Source: a virus (Duplodnaviria > Caudoviricetes). From it: 62,745 bases of DNA. Positions 39,683-46,648 of this stretch are shown here, piece after piece. The notes below the pieces were generated by a model. The model ran no database searches, was not told the origin of the DNA, and was given only the letters and a program-made list of their open reading frames with translations. The stretch is taken from positions 1 through 62,745 of IMG/VR virus record IMGVR_UViG_3300030090_000213; one strand, given 5' to 3'. Within the stretch, counting starts at the first letter, position 1. Every line of letters starts with the position of its first letter. Both the position numbers and the translations under genes were made by a program.

Positions 39683-39741
39683 AAACTGTTTCATGCCTTT
39701 AGGCAATCATCAGTAGAAAATACACATTTTCTATACAGTTT
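39683..39741 (-). ncRNA. Hammerhead ribozyme, type III (HH1)
   Basis: AAACUG-UA^-UAGAAAAU-GUGU-AUUUUCUA-CUGAUGA-U-UGCC-UAAA-GGCA-U-GAAA-CAGUUU; predicted GUA cut between 39734/39733. Confidence 0.85.
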
Positions 39742-39874
39742 TGGCAAAATTGTCGCTAGGAGAACTCGCCTGTTGCAAAGTTAAGAGTAGGTTAAGGGCA
39801 TAAGATACCCTAAAAAACCCTACTCTTAAATCGCATTAGAAAATTTCTATCTGTGTTTAGTCAGATAAAAATAT

Positions 39875-40570
39875 TTACCAGTCAATGGTTTTATCAGCAT
39901 AAATGATTTCATCTTCATTCCTATTACTTAAATACGCAATAGCTTCTGATTTATTAATAGTCTTTTCAAAAACTTCATAATCAAAATTAAATCTATTAGC
40001 AAACCATTCAGCTATTTCTTTGCTTAAAGTCCAAGACAATCCTTTATCATTAAGACCACCTCTATAGATTTTTATTTTATTAGGAAGTTTATCAAAGTAT
40101 TTTTTATCATCATCGCACATAATTAAATGTTTATCTTTGATAAAATAATCGTTTAACAAAAAATACCAATAATCTAAATTTTCATAGACATTTTCAGTAT
40201 CACACCAAATATATCTAATTAAATCCCAATACTCATCAGCTTTTGGCTTCCACCATTGCTGTATGGCATCGTAAACAAAAGGCACTCTATAAGGTCTTGT
40301 AATAAAATTTACAATTTCCATATCGTTATTTGATTTAGCTTCTTGAAATGCTTTGCTTTTAGCTTCATAACTTTTATTAGCTATATCTATTTGCAAAGGA
40401 TGTTCGCTGTAATATCCAACATAAAACTTATGATGTATCATTTTCATTCCACTTGACAATGTAATAACACATTTAGCTAGTTCGCTGTTAAGTTTTATAT
40501 CTTCATCAACATCATTAATATTTTTAATGCTATAAATTATATCTTCATTGAGTTTTTTATTTATATCCAT
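39875..40570 (-). CDS. Hypothetical early protein, C-terminal ADP-ribosyltransferase-like motif
   Basis: True start ATG 40570 after CTTGGAGG; IYRG...GLSWT...A.WFA...RNEDEII resembles the R-S-E ART pattern (inference). Confidence 0.6.
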   Translation of the reverse strand: MDINKKLNEDIIYSIKNINDVDEDIKLNSELAKCVITLSSGMKMIHHKFYVGYYSEHPLQIDIANKSYEAKSKAFQEAKSNNDMEIVNFITRPYRVPFVYDAIQQWWKPKADEYWDLIRYIWCDTENVYENLDYWYFLLNDYFIKDKHLIMCDDDKKYFDKLPNKIKIYRGGLNDKGLSWTLSKEIAEWFANRFNFDYEVFEKTINKSEAIAYLSNRNEDEIIYADKTIDW

Positions 40571-40604
40571 AATAAAAGACCCTCCAAGGTCAGTTAAGTT
40601 AAAA

Positions 40605-40657
40605 TCCTGTTTCATGGTTTCCCAATCATCAGTTGCAATACACATTGCAAAACAGAA
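40605..40657 (-). ncRNA. Hammerhead ribozyme, type III (HH2)
   Basis: UUCUG-UU^-UUGCAAU-GUGU-AUUGCAA-CUGAUGA-U-UGG-GAAA-CCA-U-GAAA-CAGGA; predicted GUU cut 40651/40650. Confidence 0.82.
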
Positions 40658-40726
40658 AATTTGACTAGCAAAGAGAAAAATATTTACTGGTAAATACTTT
40701 TCTCAACGCTAATCTGCTAGAAATTT

Positions 40727-41548
40727 CTAGGCTTTTTTCTTCCTTGGTCTAGGATAGATTTCAGAAGTTCCAAATAACTTCTTCTTTTCTTCTGCAGTTC
40801 CAAAGTGAACTATAGCTTTAAACAATCTTCTAACCATGGACTGTATTGCTAAAGTTTTTTGTTCGCCAGTTCTAGCACACACTTTAGGCTGTAATCTAAC
40901 AACTTGTCTTATGGTTAGTTGTTTTTCTTCATCAGACCAAAGACCCAAGGCTTGATTATGCAAAGAAGCATACAATCCATTCATAAATCCACCACGAAGA
41001 TTATCTTCTTGTAGAATTTTGTACCCTCTTATTGCCATACCAAGAACATCTAAATCTGAATATCTATAAGACCCAAATGATGTCCAATCAATAATTTCAT
41101 CAGACACACTTGATTTACTTACAGCTTCTTCAAGTTTAGACTTCATTGCAGTATTAATATCAGAATTTTCATCTAAACATTTATTAATGATGTTAGTTGT
41201 TTTATCAACTGTTGATTTTTTCTTTGCAGAAAATACATCAACGACATTTGCATTTACAACTGGCACCATTCTTGATGTAAGTTCATCAATAACATTTGTT
41301 TCAATACCCAATTCTCTAGCCATTTCTCGTAAAGCATTACCTCTACTTTCATGGTCATCTAGTAAACTGGCAACTACAATCTTTTCTAATTGCTTTTCAG
41401 ATTTAATCATCTTTGAAAACACATAAAAAAGTTGTGTTGAAATATCAATACTATATTTATTCTTCACATTTTCTAACCATGTTTTAGTTTCATCTGAAAC
41501 ATGAGTAGAAACTGGAGAACACTCGTTTTTATAATTATCATTTTTCAT
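40727..41548 (-). CDS. Hypothetical early protein
   Basis: ATG at 41548 after CTTGGAGG; possible N-terminal ribbon-helix-helix. Confidence 0.65.
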   Translation of the reverse strand: MKNDNYKNECSPVSTHVSDETKTWLENVKNKYSIDISTQLFYVFSKMIKSEKQLEKIVVASLLDDHESRGNALREMARELGIETNVIDELTSRMVPVVNANVVDVFSAKKKSTVDKTTNIINKCLDENSDINTAMKSKLEEAVSKSSVSDEIIDWTSFGSYRYSDLDVLGMAIRGYKILQEDNLRGGFMNGLYASLHNQALGLWSDEEKQLTIRQVVRLQPKVCARTGEQKTLAIQSMVRRLFKAIVHFGTAEEKKKLFGTSEIYPRPRKKKA

Positions 41549-41580
41549 AATTATATGTCCCTCCAAGGACAGTTTTTAAG

Positions 41581-41637
41581 TTTCTGATTTCATGCTTTTG
41601 CAATCATCAGCCAAGATACACATCTTGATATCAGAAA
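41581..41637 (-). ncRNA. Hammerhead ribozyme, type III (HH3)
   Basis: UUUCUGA-UA^-UCAAGAU-GUGU-AUCUUGG-CUGAUGA-U-UGC-AAAA-GCA-U-GAAA-UCAGAAA; predicted AUA cut 41629/41628. Confidence 0.85.
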
Positions 41638-41701
41638 TTTGATGCGGGAAGAAAAAATATTTACTGGTAAATACTTTTTCCTCCCCACCATGTTGTCGTG
41701 A

Positions 41702-43030
41702 TTAAAGACTAGAGAAATCTATAGCAACTTTTTCTCCAAAAGGAAGTTCATTGCTCCAATTATTCTCGCCACCACTTAATGCCCATATTACTGGAACATT
41801 TGGCTCAACTTCTGAACTACATTGTCCATACGCATCTGTAAAGTAGATAAATGCTATCACATCATCTGTATCATCAGTATAGTCATTGTATAAGTTGAAA
41901 GGCGGGTCAAAATCAGTTCCGCCACCGCCACGACAGACAAGTTCCAACTCTTCACAATCCAAGTCGTATTCATCCCACCACTCGCCTTTTGAGTTTTTGT
42001 GGACAGTAGTATCACAATAACAAACTCTAATTTTATTGATACCGCACTCTTCCGCTAGGGAATTGATTTCAGTTGCAAAAACATTAAGTTCTTCTTCTGA
42101 AACACTACCGCTTGTATCAATAGCAATAACAAGTTCTCCGCCTTTTGGCTCTTTATCTCTACTAGGTAAATTAATCCCTCGCCAAGAATGTCTTTTATTC
42201 AATCTTGTCCAAGTAGGATTATTAGAGTAAACACTTTGCAATAAATCTCGCATCACATCTACCCAATCAACATAACTTTCGTTTAGCTGTTCCATAGCTT
42301 TTCCAAAACCACCAGTAGGATTTTCTCCAATACTATCTAGCTTGTCAGCCATTGTGATAGTTCTTTGAAGTTCCTCTTGTAGTTCAGCCATTTCAGTAGG
42401 CGATAATTCTTGTCCATTTTCATTAGTTGGCATCCAAACTTCGCCACTAGGTAATTCAACATCAGCAAGTTTCTCTTCAAGAGATTTACTTTGTCCATTA
42501 CCAGTAGCATCAGTATCAGCATCTTCGTTAGCATCCGCATCAGTATCAGCATCAGCATCGCTATCAGAATTGCCATTATCAGAATTAGATTGCAAATTCT
42601 CTAAAGCATCGTTTAAAGCATCTTCATCATTAGATAAAGTTCTATAAACTTGCTCTGCACTTTGTCCCTTATACTTCCTATCAATTAATCCGCCCTCTGG
42701 TAAAGGCATATCTAAATCGTATGCTATCCAAGAGTTAATTACATAGTCAGTTGCTATGTTCCAAAGTTCGTGATTTCGCTTCCCTTTTCTTAAAGGATGT
42801 TCCCAAATAACATGACTTGCTTCGTGAACTAATACTGCTTGGATTTCTTCATCTGATATTGATTTAACAAATTCATCATTCCAATAAATATTAATTCCAT
42901 TTGTAGCCATAGTTTTACATCGCTCATTATCCTCAATCAAAGTAAGTTTTAATAACATAGTAGCCATACCAACATTACCTTTCATAAGTTTCGCTCTAGC
43001 TTTAATCATTCGCTCTTCACTATTTAACAT
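41702..43030 (-). CDS. Metallopeptidase + VWA domain protein (DUF2201-like)
   Basis: MATNG, VLVHEASH, WNIATDYVIN, acidic linker, MIDAS IDTSGS, GGGGTDF, YFTD; ATG 43030. Confidence 0.85.
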   Translation of the reverse strand: MLNSEERMIKARAKLMKGNVGMATMLLKLTLIEDNERCKTMATNGINIYWNDEFVKSISDEEIQAVLVHEASHVIWEHPLRKGKRNHELWNIATDYVINSWIAYDLDMPLPEGGLIDRKYKGQSAEQVYRTLSNDEDALNDALENLQSNSDNGNSDSDADADTDADANEDADTDATGNGQSKSLEEKLADVELPSGEVWMPTNENGQELSPTEMAELQEELQRTITMADKLDSIGENPTGGFGKAMEQLNESYVDWVDVMRDLLQSVYSNNPTWTRLNKRHSWRGINLPSRDKEPKGGELVIAIDTSGSVSEEELNVFATEINSLAEECGINKIRVCYCDTTVHKNSKGEWWDEYDLDCEELELVCRGGGGTDFDPPFNLYNDYTDDTDDVIAFIYFTDAYGQCSSEVEPNVPVIWALSGGENNWSNELPFGEKVAIDFSSL

Positions 43031-43062
43031 AATTAATTCCTCCAAGAATTTTATTTATGAGT

Positions 43063-43115
43063 TTCTGTTTCATGGTTTCCCAATCATCAGTTGCGATACA
43101 CATCGCAAGACAGAA
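43063..43115 (-). ncRNA. Hammerhead ribozyme, type III (HH4)
   Basis: UUCUG-UC^-UUGCGAU-GUGU-AUCGCAA-CUGAUGA-U-UGG-GAAA-CCA-U-GAAA-CAGAA; canonical GUC cut 43109/43108. Confidence 0.87.
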
Positions 43116-43166
43116 GCAAAGAAAAAATATTTACTGGTAAATAGTTTTTCCCTGCAACTCATTGGC

Positions 43167-44141
43167 TTACTTTTTATACATATCGTTTAAAAATCCGCCT
43201 TTCATTTCATCTGCTAAATCACTAACACTATCTTTTAAATCATCTGCAAGTTGTTTTCGCTTCTTGTCAGTATAATCATCATCATCACGAAGTGAATTAA
43301 CATCATTTATTTTTGCAAAGACAGTAACTAAATTTTGATGTGCTTCCGCTATCTTTTTGTCATTCCCTAGAATGTCAGAATTGATACTTGGAAGAGTATC
43401 TAAAAATTGTCTAAACTTATCAAAAGATGAATTTTTGAAAAACCCTCCACCTTTTGTTTTTGGGTCATAAGAACTTAACTTATCAGCTAAATGTTCTACA
43501 CTTTCCAAAAGAGTTTCAACAGTAGTTCTAGTTATTGCTTCAACATTTTTAGTTGCTCTTTTTAATGCATCGCTTTCAATCTTCTTGCGAAGTTTTTGTG
43601 ATACATTTAAACGAATATCCTTACTATTAAATTGTGGAACAGTACCAAGTTCAAAATCAAATCTGAATTTAGTCGCTATTTCATCTTTAGTTGGATAATC
43701 AGACAACTTAAAAGCATCGCCAAGTTTGTATTTATTCGCTTCAATCAAATTATCATAATTATCAAGAAACTCTTTAACTTCTTTATCAAAGTCAACTTTA
43801 GCATCGTTCACTTTATCCATAAGTGTATCAAGTTCTTGATTGGGACATAATCTCCAACCGCTTAAAACTTTACCCTCAAAGTCGCTAGTATTATCATCCC
43901 AAGGGACAGTCATAGGATAAAAATAGTTATACCTAAACTGATTGATAATTCTACGAAAATACTTATTCGTTTCCTTACCAAAGATATACTTCGCAACATG
44001 AAGTGAACTTTCATATGCTTTTTGGTCTATTGCTAGACCCTCTTTTAAATCCTTATCTGATTTAATACCGCTTGGATGCTTCGTTGTAAGTCGCACTAAA
44101 GTTGCATTTTCAGATAAAGTATTTGCATTTTCTTTTTTCAT
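43167..44141 (-). CDS. Helical phage protein (DUF3150-like), partner of the AAA/VWA pair
   Basis: T.PW.D...GWRL.P...F...Y......LG..F...DYP pattern; ATG 44141 after CTTGGAGG. Confidence 0.6.
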   Translation of the reverse strand: MKKENANTLSENATLVRLTTKHPSGIKSDKDLKEGLAIDQKAYESSLHVAKYIFGKETNKYFRRIINQFRYNYFYPMTVPWDDNTSDFEGKVLSGWRLCPNQELDTLMDKVNDAKVDFDKEVKEFLDNYDNLIEANKYKLGDAFKLSDYPTKDEIATKFRFDFELGTVPQFNSKDIRLNVSQKLRKKIESDALKRATKNVEAITRTTVETLLESVEHLADKLSSYDPKTKGGGFFKNSSFDKFRQFLDTLPSINSDILGNDKKIAEAHQNLVTVFAKINDVNSLRDDDDYTDKKRKQLADDLKDSVSDLADEMKGGFLNDMYKK

Positions 44142-44173
44142 AATTAATTCCTCCAAGAATTATTTATTAATAA

Positions 44174-44229
44174 ATTCTGATTTCATGCTTTTGCAATCAT
44201 CAGTTGGGACTACATCCCAATATCAGAAT
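44174..44229 (-). ncRNA. Hammerhead ribozyme, type III (HH5)
   Basis: AUUCUGA-UA^-UUGGGA-UGUAG-UCCCAA-CUGAUGA-U-UGC-AAAA-GCA-U-GAAA-UCAGAAU; predicted AUA cut 44221/44220. Confidence 0.85.
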
Positions 44230-44286
44230 GAGCGGAAAAGGAATATTTACCAGTCAATAATAAATATTCCTAGTCGCTTCGTGAGT

Positions 44287-45351
44287 TTAGATTTCTAAAT
44301 CTTGGTTATCAATTTTGAATTTAGAATATACATCGCACTCTTTGAGTTCGTTTCTTAATCCAGTAATTTTTCTAACAAAGAATATAGAAAATTCTACAGT
44401 TGAAAGTTGCTTCAAATAATTTAAAGCATTTTCAAAGTAGTCATAAACATCGTTGTCATTCGCTCCATTAATTGCAGTTGTTAATGCAATCGTTGTCGCA
44501 TAGCAAAGACCCGCATTATCTACAACTTCAACATTTTTGCCCTTACATATATCAGATATGTTTGGCACATCATTTTGAAGTGAAATAAAGTTCATAAGTT
44601 CAATCGCACTTTCTTGACCAACATCGCCCTCAAACAATTTTTGCATCAATCGTTTTGGCGGGTCAGTTTTCAAAGTATCGCTTAACCTTGTCCAACTTCT
44701 TGGACTTGGCTGTGGGTCATTACATTTAGGGTCAAAGTCCCATAGTAGCTGTGGCATAAATCTAATAAGTCCTTGAACATTTAAGTCAATGTCGTTCTTA
44801 TCAGCCCACTCTAACCAATCATCTACATCGTGAGTAAACTGGATAGCAGTAGTTCTATCTTGGCAATGCCTTAATATCTTATTTGCTCCGCTTCTATCAG
44901 TATGTCTATTACCCGCTAAAACAATTTTCCACCCACTAGGAAAAACATAATCGCCTATTCTTCGCTCTTCGTTTTTTCCTTTTGGGTCTAGTAATTGTCC
45001 TATCGTTGCTTGAACTGATGAATGTGCTTGTGCAAATTCATCCAAGAAAAATAGACCCTCGCCACCTCTAGGCAAGTTGCCTAAAAATGCTTTCTTTTGA
45101 GTTCCCTCTTCAATGTAAGGCAACCCTCCCAAGTCAATACTTTCAACTAATCCCAATCTAAAAGAGATAAAACCAAATTCATCTTCTTTTGGATTAGTGT
45201 TATCAGTCAAAGTACGACCATTTGCTATTTCCTCCGCAATCTCTTTAACTATTGCGGATTTACCAACTCCAGTACCACCAATTAAAAATGGAATATTACT
45301 CCCTTTTAAAATATGTAGACATGAAGTTTTTGCTTCACTAGGTTTAAACAT
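44287..45351 (-). CDS. MoxR-like AAA+ ATPase
   Basis: Walker A GGTGVGKS, Walker B LFFLDE, DLGGLP, VLAGNR, PSPRSW; ATG 45351. Confidence 0.88.
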   Translation of the reverse strand: MFKPSEAKTSCLHILKGSNIPFLIGGTGVGKSAIVKEIAEEIANGRTLTDNTNPKEDEFGFISFRLGLVESIDLGGLPYIEEGTQKKAFLGNLPRGGEGLFFLDEFAQAHSSVQATIGQLLDPKGKNEERRIGDYVFPSGWKIVLAGNRHTDRSGANKILRHCQDRTTAIQFTHDVDDWLEWADKNDIDLNVQGLIRFMPQLLWDFDPKCNDPQPSPRSWTRLSDTLKTDPPKRLMQKLFEGDVGQESAIELMNFISLQNDVPNISDICKGKNVEVVDNAGLCYATTIALTTAINGANDNDVYDYFENALNYLKQLSTVEFSIFFVRKITGLRNELKECDVYSKFKIDNQDLEI

Positions 45352-45403
45352 AATTAATTCCTCCAAGAATTTTAAGTTTAATATTTGTTAGCAATTTGCT
45401 AAC

Positions 45404-45464
45404 ACCAATAACATCCCAAATAGTTGAGATGTTTTCATAGCATTTCAGCTAATCATCAGTTGGT
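45404..45464 (-). ncRNA. Hammerhead ribozyme, type I (HH6)
   Basis: ACCAA-CUGAUGA-U-UAGC-UGAAAU-GCUA-U-GAAA-ACAUCUCAA-CUAU-UUGGGAUGU-UA^-UUGGU; predicted UUA cut 45409/45408. Confidence 0.8.
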
Positions 45465-45599
45465 TTGAATTACCTTATCTATTTCTTTGATAAGTTCTTT
45501 AGCACTAGAAGTTTCTTTTAAAGTTTCCCACTCTTCACTATCAACTATGTGTTCAAGTGTATCTTTAATATCTTCTAATAGTTCTTTATCAATTTTCAT
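45456..45599 (-). CDS. Small acidic early protein (47 aa, not in the ORF track), first gene of the early operon
   Basis: CTTGGAGG RBS; MKIDKELLEDIKDTLEHIVDSEEWETLKETSSAKELIKEIDKVIQTN; stop UGA lies in the HH6 core. Confidence 0.7.
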   Translation of the reverse strand: MKIDKELLEDIKDTLEHIVDSEEWETLKETSSAKELIKEIDKVIQTN

Positions 45600-45617
45600 A
45601 ATTTAACCCTCCAAGGT

Positions 45618-45695
45618 CAGTTTCTTGTACCCAACCATTTACTAACACCATGTTAGTAAACTGGACACTCATTCAGCACGTTAATTCGTGGACTG
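45618..45695 (-). ncRNA. Divergent hammerhead-like element (HH7) with core insertions
   Basis: CAG-UC^-CACG-AAUUAA-CGUG-CUGAAUGA-long stem II-AA-GAAA-CUG, in the same position relative to the RBS as the others. Confidence 0.5.
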
Positions 45696-46052
45696 TTGGA
45701 GCAGTCCCAAAAGTTATATATCTTTAAGATTGATTATTAAAATTAATTAGTCTTTATAAGTTCCTTTATCTATAAAGCAAAAAGATACTTTCCTCTTGGT
45801 TTTGCGGGTCTTGTTAAAATCATCACGACTTGAACTAACCTATTGTTACGCACTAGCTACTTTAAGAGCGAATTCCTTATTGGACTGGACTGACCTTTTC
45901 TTCCCAATAAATCTTGTTGGACTTTTTTAACACCCTCCAACACTAGCACTAGGGCTGTTGATTTAACAACTCTTCAACTTTACCTTTTTCAAGACCCTTG
46001 CGGGTAGTTGGCTACAGTTTAAAGACATAATCGTTTTGGTCTGTGTAGAAAC

Positions 46053-46081
46053 AGTATAAGGCAAGTGAACATCATCTGCAA
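46053..46081 (-). promoter_or_regulatory. Sigma70-like promoter of the early operon
   Basis: TTGCAG-17 nt-TATACT on the minus strand. Confidence 0.6.
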
Positions 46082-46168
46082 CATCATATTAAATATTTAC
46101 CAGTCCACTATTTTTGCTATCGTTTTGTGAGCATTATATTTTCTTCATATCTGCGATAAGATTTATGC

Positions 46169-46648
46169 ATGAGCAAAGATGAAAAACCAAATCTGAAAGT
46201 AGTCAAAAAAGAAATTGATTTGACCATAAAGCAAAGGCAGTTCGTGGATGAAATTATTAAGGGCAAGTTGGGTAGTTATAAAGAAGCATATGCAAAAGTT
46301 TATGATGTTACTCTAACGAAGCAAGGCAAGATACCTAAATGGGTAGAAGTGGAAGCATCCAAGTTAGTAGCTAACCCTAAAATAACCATAAGCATACAAA
46401 GGGCTATTGAACGCAAAGAGCAGTCAGCAGTAGCTAGTAGTATCAGAACAAGGAACTATGTCATAGACCAACTGTATCGTGAAAGCAAAGAAGCGGATAG
46501 CGATGCGACTAGAGTTAGAGCATTGGAACTGCTAGGCAAAAGTGTATCGCTGTTTAGTGATGTCGTTGAAACCAAAGAAGCAAGAACAAGCGATGAAGTT
46601 GAAGCGGATATTGAAGAGCGAATACAAGCATTACTTAATAAACAATAG
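46169..46648 (+). CDS. Terminase small subunit
   Basis: LTIKQRQFV...AY...ASKL..NPKI...RVRALELLGK; upstream of TerL. Confidence 0.8.
   Translation: MSKDEKPNLKVVKKEIDLTIKQRQFVDEIIKGKLGSYKEAYAKVYDVTLTKQGKIPKWVEVEASKLVANPKITISIQRAIERKEQSAVASSIRTRNYVIDQLYRESKEADSDATRVRALELLGKSVSLFSDVVETKEARTSDEVEADIEERIQALLNKQ

Follow-up and report, generated by a model that had tools for sequence, protein, structure and literature searches.

On the minus strand of a marine phage genome we found a genuine type I hammerhead ribozyme, recognised by its sequence, predicted fold and covariation, that directly abuts the end of a small gene at the head of an operon. Self-cleavage itself we infer from these features. 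The best reading of the whole arrangement, and one that we hold to be fairly probable, is that ribozymes dice the polycistronic phage transcript, with the type I copy bounding a gene cassette.

The window, meaning the whole stretch of DNA that was analysed (62,745 nt), is a complete 62.7-kb virus record. Among named phages, the nearest by large terminase were 023Pt_psg01 (61% identity), Pelagibacter phage HTVC027P (59%), DSL-LC04 (58%) and Pelagibacter phage HTVC023P (52%), and matching DNA was found in marine metagenomes. The small gene (a 47-aa ORF) and the type I hammerhead stand at the head of a minus-strand operon. Divergent from the terminase/portal genes, this operon runs in the order 47-aa ORF, AAA_5/MoxR-like ATPase, DUF3150, DUF2201 metallopeptidase/VWA and three more genes. 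The AAA+ ATPase gene, which lies 3' of the predicted cut (44287–45351, minus strand), matched Pfam AAA_5 with 22.7 bits and phrog_1297 with E = 1.8e-61; in named phages the protein had distant matches only, at <30% identity. The same TIR, CTTGGAGG, and a start codon were found 5' of all 7 minus-strand genes of the operon. This TIR takes the form of a small hairpin, NNNC-UUGGAG-GNNN, followed by ATG, and its flanking stems covary among the seven genes (GACC/GGUC, GUCC/GGAC, AUUC/GAAU). Gene packing was tight throughout the phage. No sigma-70-like promoter was found in a scan of 45300–46250.

A type I hammerhead ribozyme on the minus strand

The predicted ribozyme occupies 45404–45464 (minus strand), as placed by its fold, by covariation and by model R1. 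Stem I pairs ACCAA with UUGGU (45464–45460 with 45408–45404), and the adjoining core CUGAUGA (45459–45453) has C3, U4, G5, A6, N7, G8 and A9 all present. Stem II (45452–45437) starts with U10.1·U11.1, continues as UAGC/GCUA and carries the loop UGAAAU. The GAAA at 45436–45433 supplies G12, A13, A14 and A15.1, and stem III (45433–45410) comprises 10 bp. A15.1 (45433) pairs with U16.1 (45410), the pair being A-U in 22/22 aligned copies, and next comes nucleotide 17 at the cleavage site (45409), which is A and hence not G. The three helices surround a junction that is open at stem I, the type I topology. This geometry puts the predicted self-cleavage 3' of A17, between 45409 and 45408, which is the site proposed in the first-pass annotation. 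The same annotation had viewed the element as a circular permutation of type III copies that share its U·U core, and sequence, minimum free energy (MFE) fold and covariation agree with that view; all five of the type III copies that it counted were located, with the same variant core.

The MFE fold of 45468–45384 (RNAfold) was exactly the hammerhead plus an adjoining hairpin, with −24.4 kcal/mol and z = −4.83, and 0/200 shuffles were as stable. The core pattern CTGATGAN{6,36}GAAA gave 15 matches in the phage record against 1.39 expected, a number reached in 0/100 shuffles. Nine of these 15 matches lay on the minus strand at 39689–45459 and correspond to six cores, each CUGAUGA-U...U-GAAA, three of which match the pattern twice through a second GAAA downstream. 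We aligned 22 distinct type I copies, which came from a scan whose criteria included some of the pairing, and 96.1% of cells paired; no shuffle out of 500 reached that value, and slid controls gave at most 45.7%. Compensatory changes were present in 12/19 pairs of this alignment (4 pairs of stem II and 8 of stem III), stem I having been set by the search pattern in loci L031 and later. Model R1, built in this analysis, scored the window copy at 76.1 bits (E = 6e-16).

The window copy lacks the G10.1-C11.1 closing pair of stem II and has U10.1·U11.1 in its place, all other core positions being present. This substitution is a published natural variant (PMC3088659), so it is compatible with membership of the hammerhead class. 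Stem I has just five AU-rich pairs, and its predicted pairing probability, 0.75 at first, dropped to 0.06 when longer flanks of the transcript were folded with it; stems II and III stayed at ≥0.92. Two metatranscriptomes, available as assembled contigs, yielded 4 and 5 short matches, mostly 90–95% identical and therefore from relatives. Such contigs are silent on RNA ends, and none of them bridged or ended at any predicted cleavage site.

The 47-aa gene and the position of its stop codon

The ORF that meets the ribozyme spans 45456–45599 (minus strand, stop included) and encodes a conserved small acidic protein. It runs from an ATG at 45599 to ...CAA ACC AAC UGA, in which ACCAA makes up the 5' strand of stem I; the stop codon (45458–45456) coincides with U4-G5-A6 of CUGAUGA, and the next in-frame codon (U7-G8-A9) is UGA too. 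Upstream lies the operon-type TIR (45600–45620, minus strand; CCUUGGAGGG), a GACC-UUGGAG-GGUU hairpin presenting the Shine-Dalgarno. We found 31 homologues at E ≤ 0.01, of 36–83 aa, with a strongly conserved N-terminal region of ~40 aa, a variable C-terminus and the invariant residues K5, L7, L8, E9, D10, T14, L15, S31, S32 and A33. Because of the operon TIR and these homologues, it is very probable that the ORF is a genuine gene and is translated, which bears out the earlier proposal of an unannotated gene at this place.

Two different tails occur within this one protein family. The window protein ends in ...QTN, and five homologues end in ...KPTDD, which is GCCAACUGAUGAUUAG read in another frame; the family thus enters the ribozyme in two registers, and it is the ribozyme that dictates the last residues. 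One homologue, P0001, runs past QTN as WWLDEMLWKH, which is the hammerhead with three UGA read as W. Such an extension is consistent with gene calling under TGA=Trp rather than with a real protein.

How often the stop falls within the core was determined by taking, in each of 46 listed distinct type I contexts, the longest open frame whose end lay close to the core, with C3 as position 0. The commonest register among these was −8 (20/46), where the stop was always UAA and stood immediately 5' of stem I. The window arrangement, with the stop at +1 in the core, accounted for 8 of the 46, followed by +8 (5/46, a UAG in stem II), −12 (4/46) and −7 (3/46); six other positions were seen once each (6/46). 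Stops fell between −18 and +14 of C3 in 44 of the 46 listed contexts, and one of the two outliers was a spurious scan match. The first-pass annotation had made the catalytic core the stop codon of the gene. This holds for the window, but is not conserved, with +1 found in only 8/46 listed contexts and UAA at −8 the most frequent arrangement. Since the register varies in this way, what the compared sequences mark as the conserved trait is direct abutment of the ribozyme on the end of the preceding ORF, and not a stop within the core. Moreover, CUGAUGA contains UGAUGA, and over 15 nt of the window copy every reading frame meets a stop, so any ORF that reaches it ends there.

Other hammerheads of the operon

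The five type III hammerheads, all on the minus strand and all with the U·U core, were located at 44174–44229 (A17, in the ATPase/DUF3150 gap, with a hairpin occupying the 57 nt that follow the ATPase stop), 43063–43115 (C17, in the DUF3150/DUF2201 gap), 41581–41637 (A17, 3' of the DUF2201 gene), 40605–40657 (U17) and 39683–39741 (A17). They lie 51–133 nt behind the upstream stop; the corresponding gap of the type I copy is −9. Between the upstream stop and each of the five type III copies is a hairpin of −12.8 to −42.8 kcal/mol, and the next start codon follows each copy after 32–34 nt. In four of the gaps between stop and type III copy (44230–44286, 43116–43166, 41638–41701 and 40658–40726, minus strand) we observed a conserved AU-rich hairpin with the core GUAUUUAC-CAG-UAAAUA and a longer outer stem that covaries. 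A similar motif, CUGGUAAAUAUU, occurs near 46095.

A candidate variant of the type III hammerhead lies 5' of the 47-aa ORF (45618–45708, minus strand) and is represented by 27 instances in related loci. It reads GUC, then the predicted cut (45691/45690), stem I CACG-AAUUAA-CGUG, CUGAAUGA with one extra core nucleotide, a long stem II and C-AA-GAAA-CUG. Two extra A precede G12, and AAGAAAC was invariant across the 27 distinct instances, six of which have the CUGAAUGA form. Stem I covaries (CACG/CGUG, CUUG/CAAG, UGUG/CACA, UCUG/CAGA), as does stem II; the element had no Rfam match. A hairpin, GGGACUG-CUCCAA-CAGUCC (45690–45708, minus strand), precedes it and ends at the predicted cut. The CUCCAA loop is the exact complement of the TIR UUGGAG (45609–45614, minus strand) and is lengthened to CCUCCAA in some relatives, and by this complementarity the hairpin could be an anti-Shine-Dalgarno that cleavage removes.

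Proposed dicing of the operon transcript

In the reading that we prefer, the type I copy and the five type III copies, probably with the variant as a seventh, would cut the minus-strand transcript into single-gene mRNAs. Each type III copy would then stay at the 5' end of the mRNA that follows it, and the mRNA before it would be closed at its 3' end by a separate hairpin. The type I copy would remain on the mRNA of the 47-aa ORF as its whole 3' UTR, and a separate hairpin would stand by the 5'-OH of the ATPase mRNA. The type I ribozyme would, in addition, form the 3' boundary of exchangeable cassettes composed of TIR, small ORF, hammerhead and hairpin. Cleavage, protection by the hairpins and exchange of cassettes are the steps that we infer here.

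Several observations fit such exchangeable cassettes. The ORF and the type I copy are both missing from L005, L009 and L026. Close relatives with an 84–97% identical ATPase have unrelated upstream ORFs. Tandem units of ORF and type I hammerhead occur, two in locus L003 and three each in L029 and L053. Metagenomic DNA contigs from other samples diverge from the window exactly at 45466, the edge of stem I. A ribozyme that bounds cassettes would be expected to start where the preceding ORF ends or a few nucleotides before that point; in the window phage the ORF extends 9 nt into it and stops at the UGA of CUGAUGA. Several points count against dicing. The closeness of stop and ribozyme is equally expected from a selected interplay of ribosome and ribozyme. 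The U·U mispair stands where the best-conserved stem pair is otherwise found, and catalysis may be slower for it. Stem I, with its 5 bp, is weak, its pairing probability falling as low as 0.06 in long context, and the window copy does not match any Rfam hammerhead model.

Possible interference by terminating ribosomes

The first of these objections corresponds to a functional overlap, which the first-pass annotation had proposed: terminating ribosomes would unfold the ribozyme and couple cleavage upstream of the ATPase gene to translation. The translation load on the 47-aa ORF would then gate cleavage, most simply by delaying or reducing it. We consider this possible but unlikely. Footprint and helicase data indicate that a ribosome with UGA in its A site covers ~13 nt downstream, here through the 5' strand of stem II, and a ribosome terminating at the window UGA must unwind stem I, the core and that strand. 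In the commoner register, with UAA at −8, the footprint would continue to include stem I and the greater part of the core. Given this footprint over stem I and the core, interference is physically expected across the type I family. The stop lay within reach of the ribosome in 44/46 listed contexts, tighter than mere adjacency needs; the ORF appears real, with a strong TIR; and stem I is weak and readily displaced.

Against such coupling, the register is unconserved (−8, +1, +8, −12 and −7), one protein family using two. Five of the six clear operon hammerheads lie 51–133 nt past the upstream stop, so most cutting of the operon would take place beyond the reach of terminating ribosomes. Cleavage is irreversible, moreover, and a single folding event between ribosomes suffices. 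The phage packs its genes tightly, so the abutment needs no special selection.

A more specific version, to which we give equally little weight, is that the type I placement serves as a translation sensor, a terminating ribosome on stem I and the core letting the translation load decide whether a cassette remains attached to the mRNA of the gene that follows. If true, this would be a ribosome-gated self-cleaving ribozyme, and in the window phage the 47-aa ORF would also be freed as a 282-nt mini-mRNA (45690–45409) between two ribozymes.

The hairpin after the predicted cut

Under the dicing reading, the new 5' end of the ATPase mRNA would begin with a hairpin. A hairpin had been reported right after the cut, and it is present in the MFE fold: UGUUAGCA-AAU-UGCUAACA (45386–45404, minus strand), with 7–8 bp, directly abuts stem I and lies 4–5 nt from the predicted 5'-OH end. 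Its stem covaries among relatives (UGUUAGCA/UGCUAACA, UGCUAUCA/UGAUAGCA, UGUAAGUG/UGCUUACG), which supports selection on the hairpin in this phage lineage. That part of the earlier suggestion of a selected 5' hairpin on the product is retained. It does not extend to the wider family, where an abutting hairpin was present in just 23 of 43 listed type I contexts; its absence from the other 20 indicates that protection of the end by a hairpin is no general requirement.

We also weighed whether this hairpin could belong to the ribozyme instead of capping a 5' end, stacking on stem I and touching the stem II loop with its own loop for tertiary stabilisation. The hairpin does start at the last nucleotide of stem I, and in relatives of the G-C class its loop and the stem II loop have 5 complementary nucleotides that vary in concert (AGAUU/AAUCU in L004 and L010; AAAUU/AAUUU in L007, L015 and L027). 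However, the complementarity summed over 14 distinct loop pairs was 44, compared with 40.9 ± 2.4 after permutation, and 300/2000 permutations were as high. The window pair has only 3 complementary nucleotides, L028 breaks the pattern, and the L016–L024 clade does not have it at all. In addition, 20 of the 43 listed contexts do without the hairpin, and 5 + 7 stacked pairs would put its loop far from loop II. We consider a tertiary role of the hairpin rather improbable.

Distribution of the hammerhead family

The window hammerhead gave no match to the Rfam hammerhead families at gathering, nor at E ≤ 10, whether 62.7 kb, 1.4 kb or 96 nt were searched, and none of ten related loci reached gathering. 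The canonical relative L004 scored 30.0 bits on RF03152 (gathering 56.3), with a full-model alignment, and 25.6 bits on RF00008 (gathering 48.5). RF03152, the RAGATH-1 hammerhead, resembles the window copy in being type I, with a 5-bp stem I, a short stem II, a stem III of ~9 bp and phage-type genes nearby; unlike it, the RF03152 consensus has its own stem I sequence and an upstream AGGAG hairpin, both missing here. The window copy had no match to RF03152, for which 56.3 bits are needed, and the upstream hairpin of L004 aligned poorly. On the plus strand, 45422–45491 matched RAGATH-35 with 24.1 bits (gathering 38.9); this match runs antisense to the core and was judged to be chance.

The ATPase protein, used as a query, led to 28 related loci, 27 at 84–97% identity and one at 50%. 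The synteny set consisted of the window and 26 loci, L025 and L030 being excluded for missing upstream DNA. The 420 nt preceding the ATPase gene contained a type I hammerhead in 22 of the 26 loci as well as in the window. At this site, 10 loci shared the U·U 10.1/11.1 pair of the window and 9 had G-C there; L011, L013 and L014 had one extra nucleotide after A9 and then a G-C-closed stem II. Three loci (L005, L009 and L026) had a variant type III element directly 5' of the ATPase gene, with neither the ORF nor a type I copy, and L029 had three type I copies farther upstream.

A pattern scan of viral contigs added copies, bringing the type I total to at least 42 distinct sequences. Among those listed, 19 were U·U/A17, 22 G-C/C17 and 1 G-C/A17 (23 with G-C in all); among 56 distinct type III sequences, 38 were U·U/A17, 6 G-C/C17 and 12 other combinations. 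The type I subfamily, which is common in marine phage contigs, is characterised by a 5-bp stem I, (A/G)CCAA/UUGGU, a stem II loop UGARAU, and either U10.1·U11.1 with A17 or G10.1-C11.1 with C17. The Rfam models miss this marine-phage set, leaving at least 19 type I and 38 type III distinct sequences of the U·U/A17 kind unannotated. In three named phages (023Pt_psg01, HTVC027P and HTVC023P) there was no convincing type I match to the model (best E 0.14–0.83), and DSL-LC04 had no match; none of the four had a core with a following stem II hairpin, and no cultured system was found.

It is very improbable that the window copy is inactive, a hammerhead that has decayed or slowed and is retained only for its structure at the 3' end (as a stabiliser or weak terminator), with the U·U core as the mark of lost activity. 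For this reading, the copy has no Rfam hammerhead match, its G10.1-C11.1 pair is replaced, and stem III with the downstream U-rich run was flagged as terminator-like. Against it, the other catalytic positions are intact in the window and in all 19 listed distinct U·U type I copies, the stems covary around a fixed core, and U·U and canonical G-C copies alternate at the same syntenic site; section 8 of PMC3088659 reports natural U10.1-U11.1 hammerheads and cites earlier work in which U·U was the most active mispair. As a separate observation, the stem II closing pair and nucleotide 17 co-vary, a pattern that fits shared descent as well as functional linkage.

Relation to known systems

The operon is an unusually clean natural case, in that a ribozyme flanks every gene and two topologies occur in one transcript. 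A simple rule would state which product keeps the ribozyme and which gets the separate hairpin, and the habit of the family is to start at the preceding stop. With these regularities, two ideas become open to concrete and inexpensive testing: a role of ribozymes in fixing where phage mRNAs end and how stable they are, and an interference of translation with cleavage.

The early polycistronic mRNA of phage T7 is cut between genes by RNase III into single-gene mRNAs that end in stable hairpins. There, a host protein enzyme cuts within hairpins, whereas here the RNA would cut itself and leave a 2',3'-cyclic phosphate and a 5'-OH. The glmS ribozyme is a self-cleaving ribozyme in a bacterial mRNA, where the fate of the 5'-OH product (decay by RNase J1) decides expression. 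In contrast to the present case, glmS depends on a metabolite and its cleavage destabilises the downstream mRNA; here the hairpin by the 5'-OH end may protect it.

The main text of Perreault et al. 2011 (PMC3088659) describes clustered hammerheads of several types that flank single genes in prophages, proposes that hammerheads process long transcripts into single-gene mRNAs and, in section 8, presents a natural U10.1-U11.1 core variant. Compared with the prophages of that main text, the operon studied here has six clear copies and a variant seventh in ~6.3 kb of a marine phage. The terms 'stop codon', 'open reading frame' and 'overlap' do not occur in the main text of PMC3088659, so abutment on the stop and paired end hairpins are not described in that part of the paper. 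Gene-flanking prophage hammerheads and the U·U core are therefore already published, and, relative to that main text, stop abutment and paired hairpins are new regularities. In the literature we found no report of a hammerhead that abuts or overlaps a stop codon or is coupled to translation, though supplements may list such copies, and none of hammerheads in pelagiphages; RAGATH-1 does not occur in the main text of PMC5737381 (Weinberg 2017). A passage of a 2019 review (PMC6765202) calls the purpose of bacterial and phage hammerheads still undefined.

Other features of the operon

A nucleotide search of named phages with the operon returned a 62-nt repeat as its sole match. Inside the DUF2201 gene, a short repetitive stretch (42506–42567 and 42531–42566) was 82% identical to several unannotated Listeria phage contigs, and in two sequencing runs it had very high contig depth and showed loose ends of the GCATCA-type repeat. 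It is probably a simple repeat common to unrelated DNA.

Between the terminase operon and the first ribozyme lies a conserved leader of ~420 nt (45715–46130, minus strand) that contains no ORF and had no Rfam match. It was 69–90% identical among relatives, with compensatory changes in 11 of 51 predicted pairs, and may be a structured RNA that the first ribozyme frees.
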